Assembly (NCBI GenBank): GCA_963674745.2
Contig: CAXXDV010000001.1
Span: 896,001 to 960,000, forward strand
Length of the DNA: 64,000 bases
Reading direction: 5' to 3'
Origin: Desulfosudaceae bacterium
GTDB taxonomy: Bacteria; Desulfobacterota; Desulfobacteria; Desulfobacterales; Desulfosudaceae
A program made the position numbers and the translations under genes. Shown one piece after another: positions 34,601 through 58,638 of this stretch. The notes beneath the pieces were generated by a model. That model was given only the letters and a program-made list of their open reading frames with translations, did no database searches and was not told the DNA's origin. The stretch's first letter is position 1, and every line of letters begins with the position of its first letter.

Positions 34601-34936
34601 GGTTTCCTCCTTTGCCTGACCGGGGTTGTGCCATCTGATTTAAACTTTTATCATACCTGGTATCAAAATAAAAATACGGTGACTTGTTCCGGACATCAAT
34701 GATAATAAATAAAAAAGACCACCTTCCCATTAGTTGTAGTATAAGGGCTGCATAACTTTCAGTTCAGTCAAAGGTCTTGGAAGGGGCCAAGGGTTCAAGG
34801 GGTCAAGTAAACGACTATAAACAAAAGTCGGACGAACGTCTGGATGTTCGGCTTGTGGGTTGAAATCCGGATATTCTTAACAGAACATGCGATCCGCATT
34901 ATACTTTTTTATATACAAACGACCTCGGGAAACACC

Positions 34937-35530
34937 ATGAGCAAAGACCGCCTCAAGCAACAAATCGACTTTATCCTGGAAATCGACCGGTTGAAAACCA
35001 TTGACCGCCGGACTTACCTGACCGACACCAGCCGTTTTGAAAACTCGGCCGAGCACTCCTGGCATATCGCCGTTATGGCCCTGGTTCTGTCCGAACATGC
35101 CAACAACCCGGACATTGATCTGTTAAAAGTGATCCGCATGCTGCTGCTTCATGACCTGGTGGAGATTGACGCCGGCGACACCTTTGCCTATGACATCCGG
35201 GCCAATGAAGACAAGCAGGTCCGGGAGCAGGCCGCGGCGGAAAGAATTTTTAACCTTTTGCCTCCGGACCAGGCCGCTGTTTTCCGGGAGGCCTGGGAAG
35301 AATTTGAGGCCAGACAGACCCCGGAAGCCGTGTTTGCCGCATCCCTTGACCGGCTTCAGCCCATGCTGCACAACCTGTATACCCGGGGCAAAGCCTGGCA
35401 GGAGCACGGGGTGCGAAAGGACCAGGTCCTTGCCTTCAACCGCCACATGGCCGAGGGCGCTTCCGCCCTGTGGGACTTCGCCGTTGCCGGCATTGAAAAA
35501 GCGGTTGATCGCGGCGATCTCCAGGAATAA
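34937..35530 (+). CDS. HD domain hydrolase
   Basis: ENSAEHSWH, LLHDLVEIDAGD. Confidence 0.92.
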   Translation: MSKDRLKQQIDFILEIDRLKTIDRRTYLTDTSRFENSAEHSWHIAVMALVLSEHANNPDIDLLKVIRMLLLHDLVEIDAGDTFAYDIRANEDKQVREQAAAERIFNLLPPDQAAVFREAWEEFEARQTPEAVFAASLDRLQPMLHNLYTRGKAWQEHGVRKDQVLAFNRHMAEGASALWDFAVAGIEKAVDRGDLQE

Positions 35531-35543
35531 AAGGACATTAAAA

Positions 35544-36575
35544 ATGCCGGGCTGGTTTAAACCCCGATATCCTCGTCTGGACTGGATCCAGGTGGAAATT
35601 ACCTCCCGCTGTAACGCCGACTGTCGTTTTTGCCCCCATCACGCCTGGCGGCAGGACTGGCAAAACCGGGACATGTCGATAGAAACATTTGAATCCCTGT
35701 TACCGGCCTTAAAGAAAACGCGGCTGGTCTATCTTCAGGGCTGGGGCGAACCCTTTCTGCACCCCGATTTTTTTAAATTGCTCAACATCGGCAGGTCAGC
35801 CGGCGCCCGGGTGGGCACCACCACCAACGGGACCCTTCTCGACCGCTCAACAACCGAACGGATGGTGACCGAAAATCTTGATTTCATTGCCTTTTCCATG
35901 GCTGGTATGTCAGAAGAAAATGACCGGATCAGAAAAGGCACCCGCCTGGAATCTGTCCGCAAAGCCATAGAAACGCTCAAACAGGTCAAAGACAATCATG
36001 GCAGCCGCACCCCGGCTGTCCATATCGCTTTTATGCTGCTTCGTTCCCGGTTAAAGGAGATTGACCGCCTGCCGGATTTTTTTGCCGGCCTGGGCGTTGA
36101 CCAGGTCGTGATCAGCTCGTTGAGCCTGGCAACGGCGCCGGAATGGAAAAAGGAGGCCATTCTTGCCGACACGCCGGAAGAATGGGCCGAACTGACGGAA
36201 CAGGTTTTAAAGGCCCGTAAAACCGCCCGCCGCCGTAACCTGGATTTGCACTTCCGGCTGGTATCTCCCCTGGCCAAACCGGAACCGTGCCATGAAAATA
36301 TCCTTCACGCGATGGTGATCGGCGTCAACGGCGATGTTTCGCCGTGTGTGATGACCAACTTTCCCCATCCCCGGCCGCCGGCCCGTCGGGTCTTCGGCAA
36401 CATCAACCATCAGCCCTTAAACAACATTTGGCGAAACCCGGCCTACCGTTCCTTTCGTCGCCAATGGGCCACCGGGAACCTGCCGGAGGACTGCCGAATT
36501 TGTCTTAAAAGCCGGATGGTTGACATCGCGTCGGAGACATCCGGCCCGACCGGAAATCTGGTACCTGATTTTTAA
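35544..36575 (+). CDS. Radical SAM/SPASM protein
   Basis: CNADCRFC, GWGEP, GDVSPC...CRIC. Confidence 0.9.
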   Translation: MPGWFKPRYPRLDWIQVEITSRCNADCRFCPHHAWRQDWQNRDMSIETFESLLPALKKTRLVYLQGWGEPFLHPDFFKLLNIGRSAGARVGTTTNGTLLDRSTTERMVTENLDFIAFSMAGMSEENDRIRKGTRLESVRKAIETLKQVKDNHGSRTPAVHIAFMLLRSRLKEIDRLPDFFAGLGVDQVVISSLSLATAPEWKKEAILADTPEEWAELTEQVLKARKTARRRNLDLHFRLVSPLAKPEPCHENILHAMVIGVNGDVSPCVMTNFPHPRPPARRVFGNINHQPLNNIWRNPAYRSFRRQWATGNLPEDCRICLKSRMVDIASETSGPTGNLVPDF

Positions 36576-36733
36576 CGTTTTTGATTTACTTTCAGGCCCG
36601 TCTTTTTCCCGGCCCGGTGTTCGACGACACCCATGATCCAGTCGAACAGCGCTTTGAAAACCCACCTAAAAAATCATGCCTGACTCTTTTATGGACTTTT
36701 TTTAGATTTTTTGTAATTTTTATTCTTTTTTTC

Positions 36734-36760
36734 TTGACAAAAAAGTCCAATCTGACTTTT
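36734..36760 (+). promoter_or_regulatory. -35 box plus inverted repeat, probable TetR operator
   Basis: TTGACA then AAAAGTC-N6-GACTTTT. Confidence 0.55.
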
Positions 36761-36803
36761 ATTGTAATTTATCACCTCATAAAAACAAAAAGGAACCCAT
36801 TTT

Positions 36804-37478
36804 ATGGCCGGAAAAAAGCCTTCTCAAGCACCCAAAATGCAGCAACGGGCGATTGCCACGCGCCAGCGCTTTCTGGAAGCCACCCTCCAGTCCCTGGCGG
36901 AAAAAGGCTACGCCGCCACCACCACCCAGGAAATCTGCCGGCGCCTCAATGTGTCCCGGGGAACCCTGCTTCACCACTTTTCCACTCGCGAAGAACTGAT
37001 CATCGAGGCGGTGGAATATGTCCTGGGGGAAAACGTGAGCCACTTCAAACAGACCATGACCAACCTGGCCGGCCGTCAACTGACAATGGTCGACATTGCC
37101 AGAAACCTCTGGGAAGAGCACTGGACCAGTCCGACCTACTATGCCTGGTTGGAACTGGTGCTGGCCTCCCGGACCGATCCGGTGCTGAACAAACAGGTCC
37201 GCTCTCTGTCCGAACGGTGGACGGAAAAATTTCACGCCGCCTTCAGGGATGTCATGGGCCGGGAACCGGACGGGGTATACTGGCTGTTTTTTCTGGTATT
37301 GAACGCTTTATCCATTGAAACCATCCACACCATGCCGGAACGCGTTAACGGCTTTCTGGATGATTTAATGGCTTTTGTGGATATCACCGACCGGTTTTTC
37401 ATTCAGTATCCCGGGCGGGCGGCGGGCCCGACCAATAGACAGGAAGACAAAATCAAAAACGAGAAAGCAGAGCAGTAA
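36804..37478 (+). CDS. TetR/AcrR family regulator
   Basis: TTTQEICRRLNVSRGTLLHHFSTRE. Confidence 0.93.
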   Translation: MAGKKPSQAPKMQQRAIATRQRFLEATLQSLAEKGYAATTTQEICRRLNVSRGTLLHHFSTREELIIEAVEYVLGENVSHFKQTMTNLAGRQLTMVDIARNLWEEHWTSPTYYAWLELVLASRTDPVLNKQVRSLSERWTEKFHAAFRDVMGREPDGVYWLFFLVLNALSIETIHTMPERVNGFLDDLMAFVDITDRFFIQYPGRAAGPTNRQEDKIKNEKAEQ

Positions 37479-37515
37479 TTGATTGCAGGATAGCGAAACA
37501 AAAAGGAGACAAGCA

Positions 37516-38655
37516 ATGACAATTCAACAACCATTTAAACAGGGCGCGGATTTTGAATACCTGCGCAAAGTGCTGATGCGGGAAGTATCCCAGGGCCCGG
37601 TGCCGATCATCGAGCTCGTAGTTGACGGCGACCCCATGTCCGAGGTGACGGGGCTGCCCACACCCTTCAGCAGCATGCTGGACATGGTTGATTTTGTGGA
37701 AGGTGACGGTTCCATAAATCAGGATTCGATAAGAAAGGCCGTACAGGTCTATGACCTCTCTCTGGGTTTTACCCGGGCGGTGGGCTATGATTATGTCACG
37801 ATCATTCCCGCCGTTCTCATTCCGCGCACCAAAGCGAATATCAGCCGGGAGATTCCCGGTCAGGTCAAGCAGCGGGGCTGGCAGAACGAACATGACGGCT
37901 TGATTCAGGACCGGGCCGCCTTTGAGGCTTTTCCCTGGCCGGACTCGAGCGGGCTTGGCCTTGTGGGTATCGACTATATTGCACCCCAGATGCCCGAAGG
38001 CGCCAAAATCATGGTTTTTTACATGGGTATATTCGAAGACCTGCGGGCGTTGATGGGGTTTGAGCAGATGGCCATCAAGAGTATTCGCGAACCCGAACTT
38101 ATCGGCGACATTCTGGAGAAACTGACGGTCATTGCCGAAACGGAGCTTGATAAAATCGCGGCCCATCCATCGGTCGGCGCGGTATTTTATGCCGAGGACA
38201 TGGGATTCAACACCGGCACCATGCTCTCGCCGGCCTTTTTCAAAGAATGGGTTATTCCCCGCCAGAAGCGCATCGCCGATGTCGTCCACAAGCACAACAA
38301 ACCGTTTCTGCTCCATTCCTGCGGCCAGGTCGACGCCCTGATGGAGGACCTGATCGAAGTAGTGGGTATCGACGGGTATCACAGCTTTGAAGACAACATC
38401 GAACCGGTCGAGGATTTCTATAAACGCTACCACGACCGCATCTCCATCCTCGGCGGCGTGGACGTCAACCTGCTCACCCACGGCAGCGAAGAAGAGGTAC
38501 GGACCCGATGCCGCCGGATTCTCGATGCCTGCGGTCCGGGCGGGGGTTTTGCCATCGGCTCGGGCAATTCCATCACCAATTACTGCAGTATCGAAAATTA
38601 TTACACCATGCTGGATGAGACCCGGCGCTGGAATGAAGAACAGGGCTTTAAATAA
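37516..38655 (+). CDS. URO-D/MtaA-CmuA family protein (putative corrinoid methyltransferase)
   Basis: EDMG, LLHSCG, ILGGVD, GSGNSI. Confidence 0.85.
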   Translation: MTIQQPFKQGADFEYLRKVLMREVSQGPVPIIELVVDGDPMSEVTGLPTPFSSMLDMVDFVEGDGSINQDSIRKAVQVYDLSLGFTRAVGYDYVTIIPAVLIPRTKANISREIPGQVKQRGWQNEHDGLIQDRAAFEAFPWPDSSGLGLVGIDYIAPQMPEGAKIMVFYMGIFEDLRALMGFEQMAIKSIREPELIGDILEKLTVIAETELDKIAAHPSVGAVFYAEDMGFNTGTMLSPAFFKEWVIPRQKRIADVVHKHNKPFLLHSCGQVDALMEDLIEVVGIDGYHSFEDNIEPVEDFYKRYHDRISILGGVDVNLLTHGSEEEVRTRCRRILDACGPGGGFAIGSGNSITNYCSIENYYTMLDETRRWNEEQGFK

Positions 38656-38668
38656 GGGAGACAAGCAT

Positions 38669-39289
38669 ATGAAAGAACTCAAAGAAAAAATCATTGCCGG
38701 AGATGAAGCAGGCACCGCAAAGATCGTCCGCAGCCTTTTGGACGACAAGGTCGAGGTCGAGATTATCATGAAACAGGGCCTGATCGCGGCCATGGACGAA
38801 GTGGGCGACCGGTTCCAGGCCGGCAAGATATACCTGCCGGAGATGCTGGTGGCGGCCCAGGCCATGAAAAGCGGCCTGGCCGTTTTAGAACCGTTAATCA
38901 AGGGCAGCGGCGTCAAACCGGCCGGCACGGCCGTCATCGGCACCATGCAGGGTGACCTGCACGACATCGGTAAAAACCTGGTCATCATGTCCCTGGAAGG
39001 CGCCGGTTTTGAAGTCGTTGACCTGGGCATGGACGTGCCACCGGAGAAATTTGTCGACGCCATTACCGCCCATCAACCCCGGGTGGTGGGCATGAGCGCA
39101 CTGCTTAGCACTACCATGTTAGGAATGGAAAAGACGGTTACAGCCATTACGGAAGCTGGTCTCCGGGACCAGGTCAAAATCATGGTCGGCGGCGCGCCCG
39201 TCAACCAGGATTTTGCGGACAGGATCGGGGCCGATTTTTACGGCAAGGATTCGGTTGCCGCCAAGGTTTTCGCGATAGAAGCGCTTTAA
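38669..39289 (+). CDS. Corrinoid (B12-binding) methyl-carrier protein
   Basis: DLHDIGKNLV (DxHxxG), SALL, MVGGAP. Confidence 0.95.
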   Translation: MKELKEKIIAGDEAGTAKIVRSLLDDKVEVEIIMKQGLIAAMDEVGDRFQAGKIYLPEMLVAAQAMKSGLAVLEPLIKGSGVKPAGTAVIGTMQGDLHDIGKNLVIMSLEGAGFEVVDLGMDVPPEKFVDAITAHQPRVVGMSALLSTTMLGMEKTVTAITEAGLRDQVKIMVGGAPVNQDFADRIGADFYGKDSVAAKVFAIEAL

Positions 39290-39323
39290 CCCCCACAATC
39301 CATACCCATAAAAGAGGGAAAAC

Positions 39324-40454
39324 ATGGCACAGCAAACGTTTCACAGCATCTGCGCCTGGACGTTCAACGCCGGCAAAGGCGGGTTCACCCCTGCCGACAC
39401 CCGGCCGCAATGGACCGAAGACCGCCTGGACACCTGCGGTAAAATAGGCCTGATCAAGGATAAAATAGCCCCCCGGCTGCCCGATCATATTCATCTGGGC
39501 CTGGAGATTCATTACGACTATGAATACAATGAGAGTGATGCCGGGGCCATTGCCGACAAACTGGTCGAGACCGGGATTTCCCTGGCCATGACCACGCCGG
39601 GCGCCCACCGACATTTCCCTTATGGTGGTCCTGCCTCTCCTGACATAAAGGAACGGGACGCGGCCCGGGAATACAGCGCGAAAGCCCTTGACCTGACCTA
39701 CGGTCCCCTGAAGAAGGCCTGGCACCCGGAGGTCCCGCCGGCTTTCGTCATCTGGAACGGTTCCTTCGGCTATGACCTGGCCACGGTCGGCATCCGCAAT
39801 ATGTACCAGAACCTGAAGGAAAGCGTGGCCGGTTTATGCCGGCTGGAAGCGGAACGCGGCGGACATCTGCATATTGCCATCGAGCCCAAGCCCAACGAAG
39901 GCCACCCGGCCATGCTCCTGCCCACGGTTGCCTCGGCCATCGTGTTCTGGCGAAAACTGCACGAGGAGTTCGGCATTGACCTGAAGCAAAAAGGGGTCAA
40001 CAAGGAGTTCGGTCATTCGGAAATGATCGGGCTGGACCATGTCTATGATACCGTGGAAGAGATCGACAACCACATGCTCTGCCACATGCACATCAACAGC
40101 CAGGGTTACAACGACGGCCTGATCCTGGGCGGCCCGGGTAAATACGATATCGACAACGGCGCCCGCATCAACGGCATGAATATCGCCATTGCCGGGCTGA
40201 TTCAACAGGCCGGCTATAACCGCTGGAAAGGCCACGACATGCAGGTCCGCGCCCATGACACCGAAGCGCAGGGCATCGACCGGGTCGTTCGCAGCATCTT
40301 AAGCTGGGACGCCTGCGAACAGGCGGCAGCGGCTCTGGATTATGACACCCTGAACGACCACCTGGCCGACCGCGAAACCGCCAAAGCCGAAGACATCATG
40401 CGCCGGGCCGTCATGCACGCCTGTGACATTTTTTACCAAATGTACGAAAGGTAG
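39324..40454 (+). CDS. Xylose isomerase-like TIM barrel
   Basis: IEPKPNE, NKEFGH motifs; context with xylulokinase. Confidence 0.8.
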   Translation: MAQQTFHSICAWTFNAGKGGFTPADTRPQWTEDRLDTCGKIGLIKDKIAPRLPDHIHLGLEIHYDYEYNESDAGAIADKLVETGISLAMTTPGAHRHFPYGGPASPDIKERDAAREYSAKALDLTYGPLKKAWHPEVPPAFVIWNGSFGYDLATVGIRNMYQNLKESVAGLCRLEAERGGHLHIAIEPKPNEGHPAMLLPTVASAIVFWRKLHEEFGIDLKQKGVNKEFGHSEMIGLDHVYDTVEEIDNHMLCHMHINSQGYNDGLILGGPGKYDIDNGARINGMNIAIAGLIQQAGYNRWKGHDMQVRAHDTEAQGIDRVVRSILSWDACEQAAAALDYDTLNDHLADRETAKAEDIMRRAVMHACDIFYQMYER

Positions 40455-40561
40455 GGGCGGCCCCCTGTGGCCGCCCAACTGGTGGGCAACCACGGGGGGA
40501 TTGCCCCTACATGAACACCGATCATGCGCATCGTAGGGGCAGCCACGAGAGGTGCCCCTAC
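40451..40561. repeat. Cluster of three GTAG-type REP hairpins
   Basis: GTAGGGGC...GCCC units, one inverted pair, ending CTAC. Confidence 0.7.
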
Positions 40562-40595
40562 ATGAACCGCTGATAAATGAAGGTAAAAACACTTA

Positions 40596-42677
40596 ATGAC
40601 CAAAGACAAAGAAAAACGGTTCCCCCGCCTGGCCAGACAACTCCGTGAATCAGACGATGCGTCCGCGCTGGAAAAAGGGGTTGCCGACCTCCTCTCCGCC
40701 ATGACCCTGGGCGAAAAAATCGCGCAGATGTCCGGTAACGCGACATTATTCGACTTGGGCATTATGCTGGTCCGTTATAACCTGAAGACTTACAATTCAG
40801 GAGAGAACAAACGCCTGGGCATCCCGGCCATAAGGTTTACCGACGGTCCCCGCGGCATCACCGTGGGCAATTCGACCTGTTTTCCCGTATCCATGGCCCG
40901 GGGCGCCACCTGGGACCCGGCCCTTGAAGAAAAGGCCGGCAACGTCATGGGCACCGAAGCCAGGGCCCAGGGCGCCAATTTTTTCGGCGGTGTGTGTATC
41001 AATGTACTGCGACATCCCGGTTGGGGAAGAGCCCAGGAAACGTTCGGGGAAGACCCGCACCTGTTGGGGGAAATGGGCTCGGCCGCCATCCGGGGCGTCC
41101 AACCGCATGCCATGACCTGCGCCAAGCATTTTGCCTGCAACAGCATCGAAGAATCCCGGTTTTACGTGGATGTTCATATCGACGAGCAGGCCCTGCGTGA
41201 AGTCTATCTGCCTCATTTTAAAAAATGCGTTGACGCCGGTGCCGACTGCGTCATGAGCGCCTATAACCGCGTCAACGGCGAGTATTGCGGTCACAATGAA
41301 CACCTCCTGGCCGGCATTTTAAAAAACGAGTGGGACTTTAGCGGCTTTGTCATGTCTGATTTCTGCTACGGTGTTTATGACGCCCGGGACGGGGTCACGG
41401 CCGGCCTGGACATGGAAATGCCGGACACCAAATGTTACGGCAAAAAGCTTCGGAACCTGGTCGAACAAGGACAGATTCCGGAGGCGATCATCGACCGGGC
41501 AGTGACGCGGATTCTTGGCGCAAAGCTCAAATTCGCCCTTCGTGATCAGTCGGCCGCTTACACAAAAGACAAGATCGCCTGCCCCGGGCATACCCGCCTG
41601 GCTTACGAGGTGGCCTGTAAAAGCATGGTCCTGCTGAAAAACGACCACCACGCGCTTCCCCTGGACCGGACAAAAATCAAGCGCATCGCCGTACTGGGCC
41701 GCCTGGCCGACAAAGCCAACCTGGGGGACAAGGGCAGCAGCCTTGTCCGCCCGCCATACGTGGTGACACCGCTCGAAGGCATTAAAAACAAAGCCGGCAA
41801 AGACATCACCGTTCTGTCTTATACCGGTAATGATCCGACCCGGGCCGCGCAGACAGCCGCAAAGGCCGATGCAACGGTGATCGTGACCGGGCTGACCAGC
41901 CGACAGGAAGGGGAGTATTTCCCGCGCATCCGGGGCGGCGACCGCCTTGACCTTGGCCTTGACGAACAGGACATTAAACTGATCCATGCGGCCTGTAAAC
42001 AGGGCGGCCCCTGCATCGTCATACTCCAGGGCGGCTCGGCCATTAGCATGGAGGACTGGAAAGACGACGTCAGCGCCATCCTTATGGCATGGTATCCGGG
42101 CATGGAAGGCGGCCACGCCACGGCGGACATCCTCTTTGGCGATGTCAACCCCGGCGGCCGGTTACCGATCACCTTTTTCAAGTCAGAAGACCAGCTTTTC
42201 CCGTTTGACAAAAAAGCCCGAACCGTGACCTATGATCTCTATCACGGTTATCGTTACGCGGATCGAAACAGAATCGAACCGGCCTTTTATTTCGGGTTCG
42301 GACTGAGCTATACGCAGTTTTCATATTCAGACCTGGACCTTGTCGACGACACCCTTTCCTTGGACGGCACACTCAAGGCCAGGGTGGCTGTCACCAATAC
42401 CGGGCAAAAGGCAGGAGATGAAGTGACCCAGCTGTATATTCAATACCCGGCCGCGGATGTGCCCCGACCGGTCAAGGAGTTAAAAGCCTTTAAGCGGACT
42501 TCACTTTCTCCCGGAGAAACGAAAACCGTGGAGTTGACGATTTCCGTCAGCGATCTGGCTTATTATTCAACCGCCGACAAAAACTGGAAGGTTGCACTGG
42601 GGGAATACACTGTCCGGGTCGGGCCTTCGTCCAATCCGGACGATCTGAGACTGTCACGGACATTTATTGTACACTGA
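40596..42677 (+). CDS. GH3 beta-glucosidase/xylosidase
   Basis: DGPRG, GRAQETFGEDP, KHF, VMSD, VLLKN, FGFGLSYT, Fn3-like tail. Confidence 0.95.
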   Translation: MTKDKEKRFPRLARQLRESDDASALEKGVADLLSAMTLGEKIAQMSGNATLFDLGIMLVRYNLKTYNSGENKRLGIPAIRFTDGPRGITVGNSTCFPVSMARGATWDPALEEKAGNVMGTEARAQGANFFGGVCINVLRHPGWGRAQETFGEDPHLLGEMGSAAIRGVQPHAMTCAKHFACNSIEESRFYVDVHIDEQALREVYLPHFKKCVDAGADCVMSAYNRVNGEYCGHNEHLLAGILKNEWDFSGFVMSDFCYGVYDARDGVTAGLDMEMPDTKCYGKKLRNLVEQGQIPEAIIDRAVTRILGAKLKFALRDQSAAYTKDKIACPGHTRLAYEVACKSMVLLKNDHHALPLDRTKIKRIAVLGRLADKANLGDKGSSLVRPPYVVTPLEGIKNKAGKDITVLSYTGNDPTRAAQTAAKADATVIVTGLTSRQEGEYFPRIRGGDRLDLGLDEQDIKLIHAACKQGGPCIVILQGGSAISMEDWKDDVSAILMAWYPGMEGGHATADILFGDVNPGGRLPITFFKSEDQLFPFDKKARTVTYDLYHGYRYADRNRIEPAFYFGFGLSYTQFSYSDLDLVDDTLSLDGTLKARVAVTNTGQKAGDEVTQLYIQYPAADVPRPVKELKAFKRTSLSPGETKTVELTISVSDLAYYSTADKNWKVALGEYTVRVGPSSNPDDLRLSRTFIVH

Positions 42678-42679
42678 AT

Positions 42680-42711
42680 GTGATTAAGTGGTTATGTGGT
42701 TAAGTGATTAA
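42680..42711 (+). repeat. Four-copy 8-mer repeat GTGRTTAW
   Basis: GTGATTAA GTGGTTAT GTGGTTAA GTGATTAA. Confidence 0.6.
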
Positions 42712-42796
42712 GGAACTGAGAAATCCGCCGGGTGGCACCGGCAACTTGTTGCCGGTGTCCGTGGGACAGGAGAAAAAAAGAAGGGACATACCCATC

Positions 42797-44326
42797 ATGA
42801 CAGCATATTTTTTGGGTATCGACAGCGGCACCCAATCCACCAAAGCCCTGATCGTGGACGAAACCGGTCAGACAGTCGGCCGGGGCCAGAAAGCATATGA
42901 CCTGATCCAGGGTCTCGGCGCCGGTCACAAAGAACAGCACCCGCAGACATGGATTGACGCGCTTGCGGCAGCGGTCCATGAGGCATTAAAAAATTCCGGA
43001 ATCGATGCCGGACAAATAGCAGCCCTGGGCGTGTCCGGTCAGCAGCATGGATTCGTCCCCCTGGATGCCGAAGGCGAGGTTATCCGCCCGGCCAAGCTCT
43101 GGTGCGATACCGCCACCGCACCCCAGGCGGAAAAAATCGTCAACACTGTCGGCGGCCCGGATGAAATGATACGGCTGACCGGCAACGGCCTGCCGGCCGG
43201 GTTCACGGCTTCCAAAATTCTCTATTTAAAAGAACAGGAGCCGGACAATTATCAACACCTGGCCACGATCCTCCTGCCCCATGACTATATCAACTTCCGG
43301 CTGACCGGGGAAAAGCGCATGGAGTGGGGAGACGCCTCGGGCACCGGCCTGATGAATGTCCGCGCCCGAACGTTCTGTGAACCCGTCATCAACGCCATTG
43401 ATCCGGGTATAAAAAATTTCCTGCCGGATCTTTACCCCTCATGGGAAGCCTGCGGCCGGCTTATCCCGACAGCCGCGGAATTGCTCGGCCTCAAGCCGGA
43501 CATCCTGGTCAGCGCCGGCGGGGGCGACAACATGATGGCCGCCATGGGCACGGGCAATGTGCAACCGGGCATTGTCACCGCCAGCGTCGGTACCTCCGGT
43601 ACCATTTACGCTTTCAACCCCGAACCGGTGATTGATCCCGGCGGAGAGATCGCCGCTTTCTGCGACAGCACCGGCCACTGGCTGCCGCTGCTGTGCGTCA
43701 TGAACGCCACCGTGGCCACCGAACTGGTCAAACAGCTCTTTTCCCTGGCCACCGATGAACTCAACCGCCTGGCCGGACAGGTTCCGCCGGGCGCGGACGG
43801 CTTGATGCTGCTGCCCTATTTCGAGGGTGAACGGGTGCCGGATGTCCCGGACGGTTCCGGCGTCTGGTTCGGCCAGAACCAGACCAATGCCACACCCGCC
43901 CATTTATCGCGGGCCGCCATGGAAGGTGTCGCTCTGGGCATGGGATACGGCCTGGCAAGACTGAAGGACCTGGGCATTGCGCCGACGGAAATCAGGTTGA
44001 CCGGCGGCGGCGGCAACAGCCCGGTGTGGCGACAGATCATGGCCGATGTGTTTCAAACCGGAGTGGTCTGCACCCGCCAGACAGAAAGCGCGGCTTTTGG
44101 CGCGGCCATCCAGGCCGCCTGGACCTGGTATTCGCAAACAGACCGACCGGTTGATATCACCGACATCACAGGTGCCTGGGTCGGCCTTGATGAATCAACC
44201 CGCTGTGCGCCGCACCCGGAATACAGGCCCCTTTATGAAGAGATGCAGGGTTGCCACAACGCGCTTTCCCGATCCACGCGGGATGTTTTTGCCCGCCATC
44301 ACCGCCTGTTTTCTTCACAGGAGTAA
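42797..44326 (+). CDS. xylB: Xylulokinase
   Basis: LGIDSGTQSTK, SGQQHG, GGGDN, GTSG, GERVP. Confidence 0.9.
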   Translation: MTAYFLGIDSGTQSTKALIVDETGQTVGRGQKAYDLIQGLGAGHKEQHPQTWIDALAAAVHEALKNSGIDAGQIAALGVSGQQHGFVPLDAEGEVIRPAKLWCDTATAPQAEKIVNTVGGPDEMIRLTGNGLPAGFTASKILYLKEQEPDNYQHLATILLPHDYINFRLTGEKRMEWGDASGTGLMNVRARTFCEPVINAIDPGIKNFLPDLYPSWEACGRLIPTAAELLGLKPDILVSAGGGDNMMAAMGTGNVQPGIVTASVGTSGTIYAFNPEPVIDPGGEIAAFCDSTGHWLPLLCVMNATVATELVKQLFSLATDELNRLAGQVPPGADGLMLLPYFEGERVPDVPDGSGVWFGQNQTNATPAHLSRAAMEGVALGMGYGLARLKDLGIAPTEIRLTGGGGNSPVWRQIMADVFQTGVVCTRQTESAAFGAAIQAAWTWYSQTDRPVDITDITGAWVGLDESTRCAPHPEYRPLYEEMQGCHNALSRSTRDVFARHHRLFSSQE

Positions 44327-44333
44327 CAGCGTT

Positions 44334-44495
44334 TTACTTCTTTTTCGCGACCACCCATACGCCGTGAACAATACCGGGGATATAACCGAGTAACGTCAAA
44401 ATAATATTGATCCAGAAATGTTTCCCAATACCAACCTGCAGAAACACGCCCAAAGGCGGCAGAATGATGACGCAGATAATTTTTAATATCTCCAT
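44334..44495 (-). CDS. YqaE/Pmp3 family small membrane protein (53 aa, not in ORF track)
   Basis: MEILKIICVIILPPLGVFLQVGIGKHFWINIILTLLGYIPGIVHGVWVVAKKK; GGAG RBS. Confidence 0.9.
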   Translation of the reverse strand: MEILKIICVIILPPLGVFLQVGIGKHFWINIILTLLGYIPGIVHGVWVVAKKK

Positions 44496-47525: not shown

Positions 47526-50500
47526 ATGCAATACCTTCAAAAAACATTTAATTTGCTTCACTATACCTGTCTACGGATTGCTGTAATTATTTGTTTAGTT
47601 GCCTTGATTGGTTTTTATGGGTGTGGTGGCGGGAGTCACAGTTCATCCTCAACTCCCGGGGATGGGGATAATGGCAGCGATGAATCACCAACAGTGCAAG
47701 AAGGCGTGCTCATCGATAGTCCAGTAAAAGGTTTGAATTTTAAAACAAACTCTCAGGCGGGTATTACAGATGATAATGGTACTTTTTTATATTTGAATGG
47801 TGAAACGATCGAGTTTTTACTGGGTAGCCTTTCTTTGGGACAGACGATTGGTAAATTGCAACTATCTCCGATTGATCTCATAAACAGCATTGAAGGCGAC
47901 ACCAACCCTGCTGTAGTGAATATCTGCCGACTTTTACAGTCTCTTGATAGTGATAATAACCTGGATAACGGAATCCAGATTGATCCGCAGGTCATAAATC
48001 AAATTAACGGCCTGCAGACAGCTTTTAATTTTGACGCAGATTTTTTTTATGATGATGAGAATGTTCAAGCACTTTTTGATGCATTGAATGATGCCGGCGT
48101 CTTTGCTAATGGTCCCCGTAAATTAAAATCCAAGGCGCAAGCCATCACTCATTTACGAAAGAGTTTGGGTTTAGACGAATGTTCTCCTTGTGAAGGCAAG
48201 GTCAGCGAGTTGACCTTACAATATAATGGGCGTTCTAACCCCCGGGTTAAAATTGTACAAGAAGACGGAGAAGTGGTTTTTGATGGTGCGGTTTCTCCCA
48301 GTGAACAGTTTACTATTGCCGGCCGGGACGACAAAGGGACATTGAGTCCGTGGGTTATGGTTTATATAAATAATATTGAACAGTCCCAAGTCCATACCAG
48401 TTGTTCTGTCCCGATAGGGCCCGGACTGATTATCGGTGATTTTGAAATTATTTCCGGTTTCAGTCGTAATGGCGGTCCGCTTTGTCCGGTAGCTGAAGAT
48501 GATACCGGGGATAATGGTGATAACGACATTGATGGTGATAACGATCAACCGAACACATATTATCTTGATGCTGATGGAGACGGATACGGTAATCCCGGAA
48601 CTTACACTCAGGCAGTAACCGCGCCGGCCGGGTTTGTAAGTGACAACACGGACTGTAATGATAATGATGCAACCATAAATCCAGGCGCCGATGAGGTCTG
48701 TGGGGATGATATCGACAATAACTGTGACAATACGCTTGATGACGGTTGTGCATATTATTATCAGGATGCAGATCAAGACACTTATGGTGATTCCACAATG
48801 AGTGTTTTTGGATCTTCTGCGCCAGCGGGCTATGTGGACGACGGTACAGACTGCAATGACGAAAATTCCAATATCAATCCGGGCGCGACTGAAATTTGTG
48901 ATGGATTAGACAATGATTGTGATGGATTCATAGATGAGGGATGCCGTTATTATTACCGGGATTCGGATGGCGATGGATACGGTAATCCTGCGATAGTTAC
49001 TTTTGCACGTTTTGCTCCGGCTGGATATGTAATCAACGACACAGACTGCGATGATACTGATATAACGGCTTATCCCGGCGCAGATGAACTCTGTGACGGG
49101 AAAGACAACAACTGTGACGGTATAATTGATGAGCCGGCGGCGGGAACGGCGGATGTGACATTTGCCGGTCTTCTTGAAGAGATGGTCAATCGCGAAGGCT
49201 TCATGCTGAATACAGCGCCGGAATACACGTCGGCCATGTTCAGCAGTTATGACAGGGGCTCAATCCCGGAAGGGCGTGATAATTTGGATTTTTGCCAGTA
49301 CGTTCGCCAGGAGTTGATTGACGGCAGGAACGAGTGGGTCATGTTTGACCATGAGGGACCGGGGGCGGTGGTGCGTATCTGGCTGACCGCGCCATTATAC
49401 CAGGGTACCATCCGGATTTATCTGAATTCTTCAGACACGCCGGTCATTGAAGGCGCACCGGACGATATTGTGGGAAAACAGGCGCTGGTGGGAAGCCCCC
49501 TGTCCGCGGAACGCTCCCTCGGGATGAATCTCTATCTGCCGATTCCGTATGCCTGTCACTGCAAGATCACCTATGACGGCAACAACTGTTTTGAGACCTT
49601 AGACCCGGATGACCTCTTTTATTACCAGATCAACTATCGTACCTATGCAGCGGGTACCACGGTTCAATCGTTCTCCATGGACGATCTTACGACCTATGGC
49701 ACGGAAATTCAGAACGCTCAGGACCATCTGTCCACACCGTCAATGTCTGTTTCCGCACCGGACAGAACCATCAGCGGCACTCCGGGGATTGTGCTGGACC
49801 CCGGCGAAACGTTTGAACAGCCGGTTTCAGGCCCCGGGGCCATCACCCGGTTGCAAATCTCTTTAGACAGTGCCGCAGACGTAGATCAAGCCTTGCGGTC
49901 AACGGTTCTGGCGATCGATTTTGACGGTGTTACCAGGGTCTGGAGCCCTGTCGGCGACTTTTTCGGCTCGGGTCCGGGACGTTATCCTTATGTCACATGG
50001 TGGCAGGAAGTGTCCGGTGATAACACGATGACGTCACGATGGGTCATGCCGTTTCAGGCAACGGCCGTCATCCGGTTCATCAATCTCGGCAGCCAGCAGG
50101 TTACGGTTTCTCTGAAGGATACAGCGGTGATAGACGATGCCTGGCGGGAGGGGTATTCCATGTATTTTCATGCCACATGGCACAGCCAGCGCAATATCCC
50201 GGTTACAGCGTTTACAGGCAGTGATTGGAATTATGTGACCATCAGCGGGAAGGGCCTGTATATGGGGGATACCCTTACGGTATATAACCGTGCTTCTGTA
50301 TGGTGGGGAGAGGGAGATTCCAAGATATGGGTGGATGGCGATACATTCCCGTCATTTTTCGGGACCGGAACCGAGGATTATTACGGATATGCGTTCTGCG
50401 GGGATGGCGGTACTTATGAGGCGCCGTTTCATGCCCAGCCCCGGGGAGAGGGCGATTCGGATAACATCGGCTATACCACAAACACGCGCACACGCAGCCT

Positions 50501-50666
50501 GGACGCGATACCCTTTACCAGCAGGCTGCAGGTCGATATGGAACTCTGGCACTGGGCGACAACAGGGATGGACTACGCGGTGACCTGCTACTGGTACGCC
50601 TTTGACGGGGCGACATCAAACCGGGTTGCCGAGCCGGATGAAGCCGCCGCCCAGCTTGTTGAGTAG
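47526..50666 (+). CDS. Large modular lipoprotein with Cys/Asp repeats and C-terminal DUF2961/GH172-like domain
   Basis: Lipobox FYGC; 3 repeats of YYxDxDxDxYG...DCxD...PGAxExC...DNxCD; WGEGD..WVDG..FPS..GTGTEDYYG. Confidence 0.85.
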   Translation: MQYLQKTFNLLHYTCLRIAVIICLVALIGFYGCGGGSHSSSSTPGDGDNGSDESPTVQEGVLIDSPVKGLNFKTNSQAGITDDNGTFLYLNGETIEFLLGSLSLGQTIGKLQLSPIDLINSIEGDTNPAVVNICRLLQSLDSDNNLDNGIQIDPQVINQINGLQTAFNFDADFFYDDENVQALFDALNDAGVFANGPRKLKSKAQAITHLRKSLGLDECSPCEGKVSELTLQYNGRSNPRVKIVQEDGEVVFDGAVSPSEQFTIAGRDDKGTLSPWVMVYINNIEQSQVHTSCSVPIGPGLIIGDFEIISGFSRNGGPLCPVAEDDTGDNGDNDIDGDNDQPNTYYLDADGDGYGNPGTYTQAVTAPAGFVSDNTDCNDNDATINPGADEVCGDDIDNNCDNTLDDGCAYYYQDADQDTYGDSTMSVFGSSAPAGYVDDGTDCNDENSNINPGATEICDGLDNDCDGFIDEGCRYYYRDSDGDGYGNPAIVTFARFAPAGYVINDTDCDDTDITAYPGADELCDGKDNNCDGIIDEPAAGTADVTFAGLLEEMVNREGFMLNTAPEYTSAMFSSYDRGSIPEGRDNLDFCQYVRQELIDGRNEWVMFDHEGPGAVVRIWLTAPLYQGTIRIYLNSSDTPVIEGAPDDIVGKQALVGSPLSAERSLGMNLYLPIPYACHCKITYDGNNCFETLDPDDLFYYQINYRTYAAGTTVQSFSMDDLTTYGTEIQNAQDHLSTPSMSVSAPDRTISGTPGIVLDPGETFEQPVSGPGAITRLQISLDSAADVDQALRSTVLAIDFDGVTRVWSPVGDFFGSGPGRYPYVTWWQEVSGDNTMTSRWVMPFQATAVIRFINLGSQQVTVSLKDTAVIDDAWREGYSMYFHATWHSQRNIPVTAFTGSDWNYVTISGKGLYMGDTLTVYNRASVWWGEGDSKIWVDGDTFPSFFGTGTEDYYGYAFCGDGGTYEAPFHAQPRGEGDSDNIGYTTNTRTRSLDAIPFTSRLQVDMELWHWATTGMDYAVTCYWYAFDGATSNRVAEPDEAAAQLVE

Positions 50667-51303: not shown

Positions 51304-51840
51304 CTACTCTCGCCAGTGTTCCGGTTTATCCAACATATGTGCGCACTTAACTTTACCAGATACGCTACCTATAATTCCTGAACGTAGTTCTTGCACCATC
51401 CATGCATTAGCGTGCTCTTCTGGGATTAGATAAGGCGCTTCAAATCCTTGCACACCAGCCGGTTTAAAACCATAACGGGGATAATAGTCAGGATGCCCAA
51501 GCACGAAGACTAAATCAATACCAGCAGCGGTTAAGAGCTTTATGCCATGTGCTATAAGCTTACCTCCTACACCTTGTTTTTGATAATCAGGGAGCACCGC
51601 TAAAGGGGCTAATAGCGATATGGATGTACCTTTTTGTGTGCCTTCCAGACATGCTGATGTGAACAGAATATGCCCAATTGCTTTATTATTATCAAACGCA
51701 AGGATAGAAAAGAATGGTTGAGCGCTTGGGTCACTCAATAAATCATTTACAAGATTTGCCTCTTTATCGTATCCAAATGCCTCTTTCTCAACTAAAAGTA
51801 CGTCACTAACTTCTGTGTCTTTTGCTTCTCGAATTATCAT
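51304..51840 (-). CDS. GNAT N-acetyltransferase (YhbS-like)
   Basis: LAPLAVLPDYQKQGVG, VLGHPDYYPRYGF. Confidence 0.92.
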   Translation of the reverse strand: MIIREAKDTEVSDVLLVEKEAFGYDKEANLVNDLLSDPSAQPFFSILAFDNNKAIGHILFTSACLEGTQKGTSISLLAPLAVLPDYQKQGVGGKLIAHGIKLLTAAGIDLVFVLGHPDYYPRYGFKPAGVQGFEAPYLIPEEHANAWMVQELRSGIIGSVSGKVKCAHMLDKPEHWRE

Positions 51841-51862
51841 TGTTTCTCCGATTCCGGTTTAT

Positions 51863-51991
51863 CGCTAACGAAAAGTTCACTTTGCTGCCAAAAGCGCCGT
51901 CTGGTTCTCTCAGGAAACCGAAGAATATTAAGAGAGACAGGCCTGAAAAAGCCGCGCTTTTTGCAGTCAAATGTGGAACAATTTGTAAGTG
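51863..51991 (-). repeat. attC, degenerate R''
   Basis: CGCTAAC; AAAAGCGC/GCGCTTTT stem; ends GTAAGTG. Confidence 0.65.
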
Positions 51992-52057
51992 CTTCCATAG
52001 TTATATTTGATATTTTTATATGAATATGGCTTTAAAAAATACCAAATTAAACAATAT

Positions 52058-52465
52058 TCATTTACCTGTTTCGATTGTGGCTACTAAACGGGAATCTTTT
52101 AAAGCTGCTGATCTATGGATAACTATTTCTTGATAAGACACGCTCTCGATCATTTCAATGAATTTTTCGATAGACGGATAACGGACAAGAAAGATTTGAT
52201 CCCAATGTTCATCCGGAGGACCTATAATTGAAGCCAGGGCTTCTCCATACCACACAAGCTCTGCACCCACCTTTGTTAAATGCGCTAATGCTTTTTCACT
52301 ATATTTAGCGTATGCAGCTTTGCCTGAAATATTCGTGTTTCCATCAGGGTATTTTGCAGTTTCTCTATATCTCAGCATGTTAAGCATTATTACTGGAACG
52401 CCTTTTGGAATTTCTGCAATTGCTTCTTGAATCTGATTTTGTCTTGGATCAATTGTTCCCATCAT
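52058..52465 (-). CDS. DUF1330-like protein
   Basis: PVIMLNMLRYR, WDQIFLVRYPS, HRSAALKDSRL. Confidence 0.85.
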   Translation of the reverse strand: MMGTIDPRQNQIQEAIAEIPKGVPVIMLNMLRYRETAKYPDGNTNISGKAAYAKYSEKALAHLTKVGAELVWYGEALASIIGPPDEHWDQIFLVRYPSIEKFIEMIESVSYQEIVIHRSAALKDSRLVATIETGK

Positions 52466-52513
52466 ATTTATTTCCAAAATTTTGTTAACTATAAGTAGAA
52501 TTATTGAACTTAT

Positions 52514-52599
52514 GCAGTACCGCCCACGATGAGGGGCCGGAAAAGCAAGAGAGGAACGAACGCCGCTTTTTCCGGTCACTCTCAATTGTGAAGTTCGGC
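52514..52599 (-). repeat. attC with mutated core
   Basis: CCGGAAAA/TTTTCCGG stem, GTTCGGC end; core reads GCAGTAC. Confidence 0.7.
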
Positions 52600-53043
52600 A
52601 TTTTCATTTTTAATGTATTCCATAATGATGGCATAAAAAAACCAGTGAATACCACAAGTGTCAATCAAATAGAAAAAAATAGCTATTACACCGTAAATGA
52701 TTGAAGAAGGAACGAATAGAGATCCTAAGAAAATGGGTGTTCCCCCAAACATTGGCAATCCTGATACAAACCGGTATTCATCCAAATTCCCATGCTTCTT
52801 GTTATATAACCACGGCCTGGTAAAAGATAAATGAAAATTAAGTCCCGATACGAAGAAGCCCAAAATGGATAATATGGAACCAAGGATCATAACCCATGAA
52901 ACTTCAATCGGAGTTGATGAGGAAAGAATATGCTTATAGATGATAATCGCCGGGAAGACGACGCCACATAAACCTAAAATTAGGAGAGTAAAAAAATCCC
53001 CTAATTTATTGCTTGTCGTTTTTATTGGTATATGATCTGCCAT
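52582..53043 (-). CDS. Membrane cassette protein
   Basis: About 4 TM helices; stop inside attC. Confidence 0.75.
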   Translation of the reverse strand: MADHIPIKTTSNKLGDFFTLLILGLCGVVFPAIIIYKHILSSSTPIEVSWVMILGSILSILGFFVSGLNFHLSFTRPWLYNKKHGNLDEYRFVSGLPMFGGTPIFLGSLFVPSSIIYGVIAIFFYLIDTCGIHWFFYAIIMEYIKNENAELHN

Positions 53044-53109
53044 GATTTGACTGCCGAACGCCGCGGATGACAGGTGGGCTTCTGACGATCAAGCTTGGGT
53101 TGCAAAAAA

Positions 53110-53234
53110 TATGAACGTCCGCCACCAATGGCAGCCAGGGCTTCCACTGACTTGTTTAAAGGTTTCGGTTGTTCAGTACCCCCGATTTTTCAAAACCCGA
53201 GTGTCCTGGCTGTCCACTTGAGCTTGATTTCTAC
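53110..53234 (-). repeat. attC, family B, degenerate R''
   Basis: TATGAAC...family B body...TTTCTAC (expected GTTCTAC). Confidence 0.75.
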
Positions 53235-53788
53235 GATTTTTTCTTTCCTTTGACTGGTTCTATAAAGCCAATTGATTGATTCTTTCCCTTTGGCTTTGGG
53301 CTATCTATAAGTTTTCTTATTTCATGAACCAATTCAATTAAAATTTCGTCATGGTCGCTTACGCGTTTTTCTAATTCAATGAATTTACGTGATAATTTTT
53401 CGTTTTTCAACGCCATTTCTCGGAGCTTGATAAAAGTCCTGACGATAAATACACTCATTTTGTTCGCTTGGGATGAGTTTAGAACATTTGCCGCCTGTAA
53501 AGCTCCGTGTTCAGTAAAAACTAATGGGAGTTTCCGTCGGCCGCCCCAAGTGGAACTTGATGTCGCAAATTGCGATTTCAAGTTTTCGAATTCTTCCTTG
53601 GTTAATTGGAACATAAAATCGCCCGGAAATTTATCAATGTTGCGACGAACTTGCTCGTTTAGGCGTCTGGTCTCTACGCCATATAGTGTCGCTAAATCGG
53701 AATCAAGTATAACTTTTTCTCCCCGTACGATTATAATAATATTCAATATTTTTTCTTCGGGAATAAGACTTCCAGATTTCCTTGGCAT
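53231..53788 (-). CDS. ORF6N domain DNA-binding protein
   Basis: RGEKVILDSDLATLYGVETRRLNEQVRRN..FP.DFMFQL, FTEHG. Confidence 0.92.
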   Translation of the reverse strand: MPRKSGSLIPEEKILNIIIIVRGEKVILDSDLATLYGVETRRLNEQVRRNIDKFPGDFMFQLTKEEFENLKSQFATSSSTWGGRRKLPLVFTEHGALQAANVLNSSQANKMSVFIVRTFIKLREMALKNEKLSRKFIELEKRVSDHDEILIELVHEIRKLIDSPKPKGKNQSIGFIEPVKGKKKS

Positions 53789-53813
53789 AATTTATGTCCT
53801 CAAATTATTTATC

Positions 53814-53877
53814 GTAGAACGCTATGGATCACAGGCCGCGAGGCACGAACGGTCCTTCGTGAAGCCGTTCGTTAGCC
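53814..53877 (-). repeat. attC site (64 bp)
   Basis: GTAGAAC...GTTAGCC, matching core GGCTAAC at 55766. Confidence 0.8.
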
Positions 53878-53898
53878 GCGCCATTATCTTTATCTGTT

Positions 53899-55760: not shown

Positions 55761-55765
55761 TTGTC

Positions 55766-55825
55766 GGCTAACGGCGCTAATAAGTCGCGCGGCTGTAAAC
55801 GGTACGGTTCAGGGCTTTGTTGGCA
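55766..55825 (-). repeat. attC site (60 bp, weak stem)
   Basis: GGCTAAC...GTTGGCA, matching core TGCCAAC at 58241. Confidence 0.65.
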
Positions 55826-55857
55826 TCTCATGTAAATATTGCGGATGTAGGAGCTCA

Positions 55858-58196: not shown

Positions 58197-58240
58197 TGCG
58201 GTGTTCCTTTCTCATGGGTTGATTCGTCAATCTTGTCTAA

Positions 58241-58345
58241 TGCCAACATCCACGGTGTGGGGCCGCAAGGGGAACGTGCCACCGCAAAAAACTCATTATT
58301 GGAAAAAAGTGGTAAGAGCCAAAGCCGGACGTCCCTTGCGGTCCC
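58241..58345 (-). repeat. attC truncated on R'' side
   Basis: TGCCAAC; GGGCCGCAAGGG/CCCTTGCGGTCC stem; fused to gene fragment. Confidence 0.7.
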
Positions 58346-58572
58346 TGCCAACGCACCAAAAATCCATTCTGACCGGAGTCTTCACCCTGAATCCGGATTG
58401 GTTTATTTAAATAATAACACCCATCCCCAAAATAAATATTTATATCAGAAGTCATGCTTCTGCCGGCCGTTTTAATAAGATCAGTGACCCTCTCAAGAGA
58501 ACAGGGATTGCCTTTCTTTCCATCCCCTTCCCCATTGGGCGAAACATAAAAATTATTCATCGTTTTTCTCAT
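58345..58572 (-). pseudogene. 5' fragment duplicate of the beta-helix cassette gene
   Basis: Near-identical to 55533-55760 (MRKTMNNFYVSPNGEGDG...). Confidence 0.9.
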
Positions 58573-58577
58573 TTATC

Positions 58578-58638
58578 GGCGAACGGCTCTGGTGTGGGGC
58601 GCGCGGCTGTTTACGCGTCCCACACCAGATGGTTCGGT
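58578..58638 (-). repeat. attC site (61 bp)
   Basis: GGCGAAC, TCTGGTGTGGG/CCCACACCAGA, GTTCGGT. Confidence 0.85.

Follow-up and report, generated by a model that had tools for sequence, protein, structure and literature searches.

The subject of this work is a cluster of six genes on the plus strand of a 64,000-nucleotide (nt) window (the whole stretch of DNA that was analysed) from the genome of a Desulfosudaceae bacterium. In this cluster, genes of a corrinoid, i.e., B12-dependent, methyl-transfer module stand directly in front of genes for the use of a xylose-type sugar. A preliminary description had listed six co-oriented genes, running from tetR through a uroporphyrinogen decarboxylase (URO-D)/MtaA-family gene, a corrinoid protein gene, a xylose-isomerase-like gene, and a glycoside hydrolase family 3 (GH3) gene to a xylulokinase gene. 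All six are present at that place on the plus strand, and their families were verified by Pfam and NCBIfam searches. The features, in positions of the window and with protein lengths in amino acids (aa), are as follows:

36804 to 37478, plus strand: TetR-family regulator, 224 aa (PF00440, 56.5 bits)
37516 to 38655, plus strand: URO-D/MtaA-fold protein, 379 aa, a putative substrate:corrinoid methyltransferase (MT1) (PF01208, 79.3 bits)
38669 to 39289, plus strand: corrinoid (B12-binding) methyl-carrier protein (CP), 206 aa (PF02310, 98.4 bits; PF02607, 72.8 bits)
39324 to 40454, plus strand: divergent class-I-type xylose isomerase (XI-like), 376 aa (phmmer, Foldseek)
40455 to 40595, plus strand: intergenic spacer with two hairpins resembling repetitive extragenic palindromic (REP) elements (RNA fold)
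40596 to 42677, plus strand: GH3 glycoside hydrolase, 693 aa (PF00933, 147.5 bits; PF01915, 193 bits; PF14310, 90 bits)
42797 to 44326, plus strand: xylulokinase XylB, 509 aa from the ATG, with the frame open from a GTG at 42704 (TIGR01312, 500.6 bits)

The intergenic gaps are, in gene order, 37, 13, 34, 141, and 119 nt, so that the tight spacing attributed to the cluster holds for the first four genes and not for the last two gaps. XylB alone among the cluster proteins passes an equivalog cut-off of NCBIfam, and the cluster contains the sole XI-type, GH3-type, and XylB-type genes of the genome.

The URO-D protein matches PF01208 well above the cut-off of 23.9 bits, with the match restricted to profile positions 126–346. 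It stays below the curated cut-offs of PRK06252 (59.3 vs. 244 bits), TIGR01463 (54.6 vs. 235.4), MtaA_Meth (43.5 vs. 400), and MtbA (38.9 vs. 600), and no O-demethylase model in NCBIfam matches it. Its AlphaFold2 model (pLDDT 88.9, pTM 0.90) has MtaA of Methanosarcina (4ay8/4ay7) as the best Foldseek match (E = 1.2e-14, TMt 0.76); HemE structures come next, and MetE ranks lower in the list. When the family profile was compared with PDB by sequence, only CdmB was found (9rui, E = 0.0084, residues 236–366), while a single-sequence search gave weak matches (1j93, E = 5e-5; MtaA, E = 0.057) and the look-alikes in the ESM Atlas were generic URO-D clusters only. The zinc site of MtaA is formed by an H-x-C ... 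C motif; H267-S268-C269 and C339, the putative counterparts of these ligands, are nearly invariant among 24 members of the URO-D family. The corrinoid protein combines a B12-binding_2 cap with a B12-binding Rossmann domain and falls below the curated cut-offs of TIGR02370 (184.9 vs. 215.3) and MtgC_2 (192.9 vs. 370). Corrinoid proteins carry the cobalt-ligand motif D-x-H-x-x-G, and DLHDIG is present in the translation. The URO-D and CP genes are kept as a pair in the sister species G092, in G053, G061, G034, L119, and L124, and in six f111 genomes (G609, G665, G550, G448, G692, and G485). From its predicted structure, the URO-D protein is a putative MT1. A true decarboxylase of uronic acids was also considered for this protein and rejected, because the CP gene and, in relatives, a pterin-binding methyltransferase gene travel with the URO-D gene.

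The direction of methyl transfer might also be the reverse of demethylation. The best structural match, MtaA, is a methylcobalamin:thiol methyltransferase, MetE is found lower in the same list, and the HSC motif and the second Cys are kept in nearly all members. The system could then be a split methionine synthase of sorts, in which a pterin-binding methyltransferase methylates the CP from methyl-tetrahydrofolate and the zinc-type URO-D protein passes the methyl group to a thiol or another acceptor, as MtaA does; a methylated metabolite would be made or modified, and no sugar would be demethylated. Both G053 and the present genome encode MetH-activation-domain-like proteins beside paralogous modules, and methyl-sulfur or methyl-selenium roles have been proposed for related Mlp clusters by Kountz and Balskus (PMC10418091). 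Nevertheless, such a reversed transfer appears very improbable, as the recurrent neighbours are catabolic (glycosidases, isomerase, kinases), the cluster lacks genes of biosynthesis or thiol metabolism, and the pterin-binding methyltransferase is dispensable here, which would be odd if methyl-tetrahydrofolate were the donor.

That methyltransferase was found through the relatives. The absence of a corrinoid activator and of a second methyltransferase, pointed out in the preliminary description, is true of the window, where Pfam and profile searches detected neither, but it overlooks a gene that lies within the cluster of related genomes. In G092, an apparent gap of 820 nt between tetR and the URO-D gene encodes a 269-aa pterin-binding methyltransferase (MT2; PF00809, 92.6 bits). 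MT2 occupies the same place in G053, G061, and G034 as in G092 (82–96 bits over the four), and a partial copy is found in the metagenome contig L119. The stretches compared with the window spacer, in relatives that carry MT2 between tetR and the URO-D gene, are:

L113, 6187 to 6996
L114, 10128 to 11000
L115, 6195 to 7004
L116, 6186 to 7004

In the window, the spacer between tetR and the URO-D gene (37479–37515) is 37 nt long and contains no MT2. Since relatives carry MT2 exactly where the window has this short spacer, the gene was probably lost from this position in the present genome. The location of MT2 inside the relatives' module also implies, as far as gene content tells, that the ancestral module is tetR-MT2-MT1-CP, the canonical corrinoid methyl-transfer set. 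The best MT2 paralog in this genome, 40% identical, is encoded at C1:1818755-1819546 in a cluster with two MttB-family genes, a CP gene (49% identity to the window CP), RACo, and DUF1638, and three RACo-type activators are encoded elsewhere in the genome (C1:321533, C3:771971, and C1:1820488). Judged by homology, relatives thus carry in cis the parts that the window is missing, and this genome carries them in trans. The region C1:1817065-1831890 (L154) is a separate complete corrinoid system, with a CP, two MttB-family methyltransferases, RACo, DUF1638, and a pterin-binding MT2, and also holds a hydantoinase-like protein, an ACT-domain protein, and PfkB. In addition, URO-D/CP pairs are encoded at two other places, C1:337414-340699, with a TetR and a MetH-activation-domain-like protein, and C3:1733146-1735064.

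In the sugar half, the isomerase is divergent. Its earlier designation as xylose-isomerase-like is justified by the fold, which is that of a class-I-type enzyme, but the scores of the protein lie below all curated XI thresholds (TIGR02631, 64.1 vs. 447; PF01261, 25.4 vs. 31.1; TIGR02630, no match). By phmmer, the protein matches xylose isomerases of PDB with E = 8.6e-12. The top 50 Foldseek matches of its AlphaFold2 model (pLDDT 83.6) are all xylose/glucose isomerases (E about 1e-13, TM 0.65–0.72, about 20% identity), and the XI fold, including the C-terminal helical arm, is present in the model. The 32 members of the family that were compared all share H63, E187, K189, E228, H231, D275, D277, and D305, with the roles of metal-site and catalytic residues presumed from the Streptomyces enzyme; the invariant H256 aligns with the class I metal ligand Asp245. 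The family is 65–90% identical over Desulfobacterota, Spirochaetota, Planctomycetota, Bacillota, Fibrobacterota, and others. Among 80 sampled XI-like loci, a XylB-like kinase of the FGGY family is present in 57, within 1 kb in 52 of them. TIGR01312 is the best model for all nine kinases tested from such loci, eight of which score below the cut-off of 380 (126–325 bits), with the L001 kinase above it (509.5 bits). Five genomes with the XI-like family, the present one among them, were searched for class II xylA, and it was found in none; the XI-like gene, of which there is one copy here, is apparently their sole XI-type gene. Because of the fold, the invariant residues, the partnership with the kinase, and the lack of class II xylA in the five genomes, we read the XI-like protein, from sequence and model, as a genuine, uncharacterised, and widespread xylose-isomerase lineage. 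The GH3 protein has three domains above cut-off (N-terminal, C-terminal, and Fn3-like), and its best NCBIfam models, an arabinopyranosidase, beta-xylosidases, and BglX, are all below cut-off. An N-terminal hydrophobic signal is not visible, and the enzyme is therefore probably cytoplasmic. XylB exceeds its TIGR01312 cut-off of 380.25 bits with the score listed above.

Upstream of tetR, a promoter-like TTGACA hexamer was read by eye at 36733–36738, and position 36734, from which the preliminary description had started the cluster, falls on it. Just 3′ of the hexamer, an inverted-repeat search revealed the perfect palindrome AAAAGTC-N6-GACTTTT (36741–36760), with a second, degenerate copy 70 nt upstream of it (36670–36687). 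Both palindromes are kept 5′ of tetR in five genomes, and they are probably TetR binding sites. A pattern scan of the cluster found no copies beyond these two; with operator-like sites only 5′ of tetR, any TetR control of the sugar genes would operate by read-through. The tetR orthologs (55–78% identity) head the corrinoid module in G092, G053, G061, and G034. A simple promoter scan called no plus-strand promoter at 36733–36760, and a simple terminator scan called no plus-strand terminator in the CP-XI and XI-GH3 spacers; both kinds of scan performed at or below chance expectation and did not delimit the transcription units. The 141-nt XI-GH3 spacer folds into two very stable hairpins (−78.1 kcal/mol, z = −7.67), built on the core GTAGGGGC...GCCCCTAC, of which GTAGGGGC occurs in 740 copies in the 5.5-Mb genome. 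These hairpins are a REP-like element and not a T-run terminator.

The association of the two halves was followed in other genomes through URO-D orthologs, drawn from a class-level and a phylum-level sample of 401 genomes each and from a metagenome scan (about 30 contexts), and through the 80 XI-like loci; in the loci of relatives, small genes overlapped by longer antisense frames may be missed by the open reading frame calling. The sister species G092 contains all six genes in the same order (identities: URO-D 88%, CP 77%, XI 84%, GH3 74%, XylB 77%). Contig L119 runs from the partial MT2 through URO-D and CP to the start of XI, where the contig ends. In G124, the genome of locus L001 and a member of a second genus of the same family, the order is ROK-CP-XI-URO-D′-GH3-XylB; the CP is orthologous (83% identical to that of the window), the URO-D′ is non-orthologous (25% identical), and the gene of a ROK-family regulator is followed by intermixed corrinoid and sugar genes. 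G092 and L119 thus keep the CP-XI junction, which is 34 nt long in the window, and L001 keeps it in combination with a different URO-D. A third URO-D subfamily (441–476 aa) is encoded directly upstream of XI-FGGY-GH3 in nine Desulfatiglans-type loci, and L020 has the order URO-D-GH116-FGGY-XI. In total, a URO-D gene flanks 11 of the 80 XI-like loci, with three non-orthologous subfamilies involved. These 11 are found among the 15 loci with Desulfobacterota-type titles, the other four being contigs of 3.2 to 7.5 kb; none of the 65 loci outside Desulfobacterota matches the URO-D profile, and among the sampled loci a CP gene accompanies the XI-like gene in L001 only. As separate observations on the Desulfatiglans-type loci, a SAM-dependent O-methyltransferase gene (PF00891) is divergent from URO-D-XI-FGGY-GH3 at L008:5467-6459, L009:432-1424, L010:5459-6451, and L014:5445-6440, and L012 also carries a TonB-dependent receptor and a sulfatase.

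Orthologs of the window URO-D in other contexts (52–61% identity) have further sugar-related neighbours. The gene order in G665 is GH38-x-UROD-CP-FGGY-XI, and in G550 the UROD-CP pair lies beside GH13, GH4, and GH3; similar contexts, with GFO/IDH/MocA oxidoreductases, occur in G448, G692, and G485, and the glycosidases near the pair in these four genomes are of GH13, GH4, GH38, or GH3 type. L122 and L123 show CbiMQO-UROD-GH3, with the URO-D gene directly before a GH3 that is 55% identical to that of the window. GH1 adjoins CP in L125, a GH29 fucosidase gene is near the URO-D ortholog of G351, and G776 has the order GH3-CP-UROD-x-sulfatase-UROD-MT2. The f111 genomes have two to five GH3 genes each, one of them within 10 kb of UROD-CP in all four genomes of genus g195. 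Pfam scans of the gene contexts revealed no genes for the catabolism of aromatic rings.

From this combination of gene content, fold, and context, we tentatively propose a TetR-controlled operon in which a corrinoid O-demethylase module is joined to a cytoplasmic module leading from glycoside to xylulose-5-phosphate, and which would serve the use of methylated xylosides or xylo-oligosaccharides with the methyl group on the pentose. In the proposed sequence of events, an imported glycoside would be cleaved by GH3, and the URO-D protein, acting as MT1, would transfer the O-methyl group to the Co(I) form of the corrinoid protein. In the favoured variant, the methyl ether is on the pentose, and demethylation would yield xylose, which the divergent XI and XylB would convert to xylulose-5-phosphate. 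The methyl group on the CP would pass to tetrahydrofolate by means of a pterin-binding MT2, supplied here by a paralog, and one of the three RACo-type activators encoded elsewhere would return the corrinoid to its reduced state. TetR would occupy both AAAAGTC-N6-GACTTTT sites and be released by the substrate or product. While gene identities, folds, and synteny are established, we infer the substrate, the direction of methyl transfer, co-transcription, and complementation in trans.

Several observations weigh against this proposal. No transporter gene is present in the cluster, the 141- and 119-nt gaps may permit internal promoters, and TetR is an unusual type of regulator for a sugar operon. 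The absence of MT2 may mean that the corrinoid module is in decay. Separate occurrences of the two modules were found as well: in G053 and G034, tetR-MT2-UROD-CP stands without adjacent sugar genes (in G061, the contig ends right after CP), and L002 has ROK-XI-GH3-XylB with no corrinoid genes. Sugar genes were likewise not seen around the URO-D orthologs of G709/L120, G437/L121/L144, L124, and L146. By our count, the flanks are free of sugar genes in about four of nine lineage groups of the window URO-D family. A search for the XI-like gene in five genomes with such orthologs (G053, G034, G061, G709, and G437; completeness 85–98%) detected it in none of them. For GH3 orthologs (47–57% identity) in ten other genomes of the phylum sample, URO-D is within 8 kb in one, and XI or XylB within that distance in none.

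Such separations could mean that the two parts of the cluster are merely juxtaposed: a methyl-harvesting tetR-(MT2)-UROD-CP module for a non-sugar donor would have come to stand next to an XI-GH3-XylB unit that lost its ROK regulator, and any co-transcription would be incidental. Each module is found alone elsewhere, GH3 orthologs rarely neighbour URO-D, MT2 is missing here, REP elements and long gaps set XI, GH3, and XylB apart from one another, and the TetR operator is confined to the tetR promoter. Still, we consider this unlikely, since the 34-nt CP-XI junction, in which no terminator was called, is kept in G092 and L119 and also in L001 with its other URO-D, three non-orthologous URO-D subfamilies independently adjoin the XI-like gene, and the window contains no regulator dedicated to the XI-GH3-XylB part. 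Chance adjacency is also unlikely because the genome contains few URO-D-like genes (three by tblastn with the window protein) and a single XI gene. The linkage across genomes on which the preliminary description had made its inference depend is seen in G092, L119, G124/L001, G665, L122, and L123 and is lacking in G053, G034, and L002, a mixed outcome that is more favourable than adverse to the inference. Because the halves are joined in several lineages and separate in others, a functional link between them is likely on the comparative evidence, recurrent but facultative.

A functional link leaves the position of the methyl group to be considered. The same operon logic would apply to a methoxylated phenolic beta-glycoside, e.g., a lignin- or plant-derived aryl xyloside, from which GH3 would free xylose for XI and XylB, while URO-D and CP would strip the aryl methyl ether of the aglycone and pass the methyl group to tetrahydrofolate. 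This variant is favoured by the chemistry of known URO-D-fold MT1 enzymes, by the tetR-MT2-UROD-CP modules that stand alone in genomes in which the XI-like gene was not detected and that fit methyl-only harvesting of methoxy-aromatics, and by the regulator, since hydrophobic small molecules are the usual ligands of TetR proteins. Moreover, the glycosidases nearest to URO-D often belong to what we take to be aryl-beta-glycosidase families, namely GH3, GH1 (L125), and GH116 (L020). To our knowledge, the characterised URO-D-fold MT1s act on aryl methyl ethers, methylthiols, or chloromethane, and none on sugars; this, and the fact that an alkyl methyl ether is a harder leaving group, adds to the points against a sugar substrate. 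On the other side, in L001, L147, and the Desulfatiglans loci the URO-D and CP genes are interleaved with XI and XylB-like genes in addition to glycosidases, other neighbours such as GH38, GH13, GH4, GH29, sulfatase, TonB receptor, and GFO/IDH/MocA oxidoreductases are of the type that points to glycans, ring-degradation genes are absent from the scanned flanks, and a ROK regulator precedes the corrinoid genes in L001. For these reasons, we favour the methyl group on the sugar and regard the aglycone variant as somewhat unlikely. Regarding the original inference, B12-dependent O-demethylation followed by sugar catabolism, the functional connection is upheld as likely though facultative, while its placement of the methyl group has a competitor in the aglycone methyl, which fits about equally. 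The wider hypothesis built on the sugar-methyl variant is possible but doubtful: anaerobes would possess a corrinoid route for removing carbohydrate methyl ethers, to which several URO-D subfamilies were recruited independently, and the version in the window would convert O-methyl-xylose to xylose with the methyl group kept as methyl-tetrahydrofolate. Hydrolysis of a methyl beta-xyloside to methanol, followed by transfer of the methanol methyl group, was considered as well and judged unlikely, with no MtaB-type gene present.

The cluster shares features with several known systems. Classical xylAB/beta-xylosidase operons, which are under ROK-type XylR control, likewise combine an isomerase, a xylulokinase, and an intracellular glycosidase, and L002 and L001 have the ROK regulator, too. 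The window differs from them in an isomerase only about 20% identical to class I enzymes, with His at the position of Asp245, in the TetR regulator, and in the inserted corrinoid genes. Three-component corrinoid O-demethylases are represented by Odm/Vdm of Acetobacterium dehalogenans and MtvABC of Moorella; MtoABCD of Methermicoccus is another such system of an anaerobe (PMC8630106). The likeness to these enzymes includes the URO-D-fold MT1, the small B12-binding_2/B12-binding CP, the pterin-binding MT2 (here in sister genomes), an ATP-dependent activator in cis or trans, anaerobic life, and transfer of the methyl group to tetrahydrofolate. In contrast to them, the module of the window is fused to XI, GH3, and XylB, the cluster has neither MT2 nor an activator, the URO-D protein is below all curated MtaA-type thresholds, and the substrate may be a carbohydrate methyl ether.

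The chloromethane methyltransferase system CdmBCA of Acetobacterium dehalogenans (PMC13222342; PDB 9rui) follows the same MT1-CP-MT2 logic, and its CdmB is the best profile-to-PDB sequence match of the window URO-D family; however, that match is marginal (E = 0.0084, residues 236–366), and the system has a halomethane as substrate and no sugar context. MtaA/MtbA/MtsA and the bacterial Mlp clusters have the same fold, the H-x-C motif, and an adjacent CP, and the Mlp clusters resemble the window in having no tetrahydrofolate methyltransferase gene (PMC10418091). Type 1 Mlp clusters are described there as containing two or three Mlp paralogs and a Ram/RACE activator (Kountz and Balskus, PMC10418091), whereas the cluster of the window combines a single URO-D gene with a TetR regulator and sugar genes and lacks an activator. 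The closest counterpart in proposed role is a cytochrome P450 that demethylates 6-O-methyl-D-galactose in aerobic marine bacteria (PMC6292453, PMC10033563): a sugar methyl ether is removed in a polysaccharide-utilisation context, and normal catabolism follows. That enzyme belongs to an unrelated family, depends on oxygen, and releases formaldehyde, whereas the system proposed for the window would be anoxic and B12-dependent and would conserve the methyl group. In the full-text literature, with most subscription journals outside its coverage, no description of corrinoid-dependent sugar demethylation was found, and nothing on point about URO-D with glycoside hydrolases or a new XI class.

The surroundings of the cluster contain additional genes. 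Directly 5′ of tetR (34844–36575) are an HD-domain gene and a radical SAM/SPASM gene, for which the best model is a maturase of a tungsten-cofactor oxidoreductase (160.8 bits vs. a cut-off of 380). G092 retains the HD gene, and the radical SAM frame is matched there only in its first 127 residues, the stretch that overlaps the HD gene; its radical SAM and SPASM domains have no match in G092. About 20 kb upstream of the cluster (14984–17582) are C1-metabolism genes, comprising a second TetR gene, a CCG-domain protein, and a protein with a methylene-tetrahydrofolate reductase C-terminal domain (DUF5981). On the minus strand at 44333–44494, convergent with xylB, a small open reading frame encodes what looks by eye like a membrane peptide of the Pmp3/YqaE type. 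An AT-rich stretch (GC 0.39–0.45) 3 kb downstream of xylB carries a gene (47526–50666) for a 1046-aa protein with DUF2961, which we take to be glycoside hydrolase family GH172, three MopE-type metal-binding motifs, and DUF7467. Further on, at 51304–61660, a run of minus-strand open reading frames, mostly without Pfam matches, includes an ORF6N-domain protein and an AAA_15/AAA_21 ATPase and may be a mobile or defence island.

Sugar methyl ethers occur in plant pectin, hemicellulose, algal galactans, and microbial glycans, where they block ordinary sugar catabolism. The only characterised route for their demethylation found in the literature is the oxygen-requiring P450 (PMC6292453). The cluster described here suggests, from its gene content, an oxygen-free use of methylated glycosides that has not been described. 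If this is true, it would add a new substrate class to B12-dependent methylotrophy, tie glycan degradation to C1 metabolism in sulfate reducers, and provide a function for many proteins annotated as ‘uroporphyrinogen decarboxylase family’. A corrinoid route acting on carbohydrates would do without oxygen what the P450 sugar demethylases do with it; even with the methyl group on the aglycone, deglycosylation, O-demethylation, and pentose entry within one operon would be a new arrangement.

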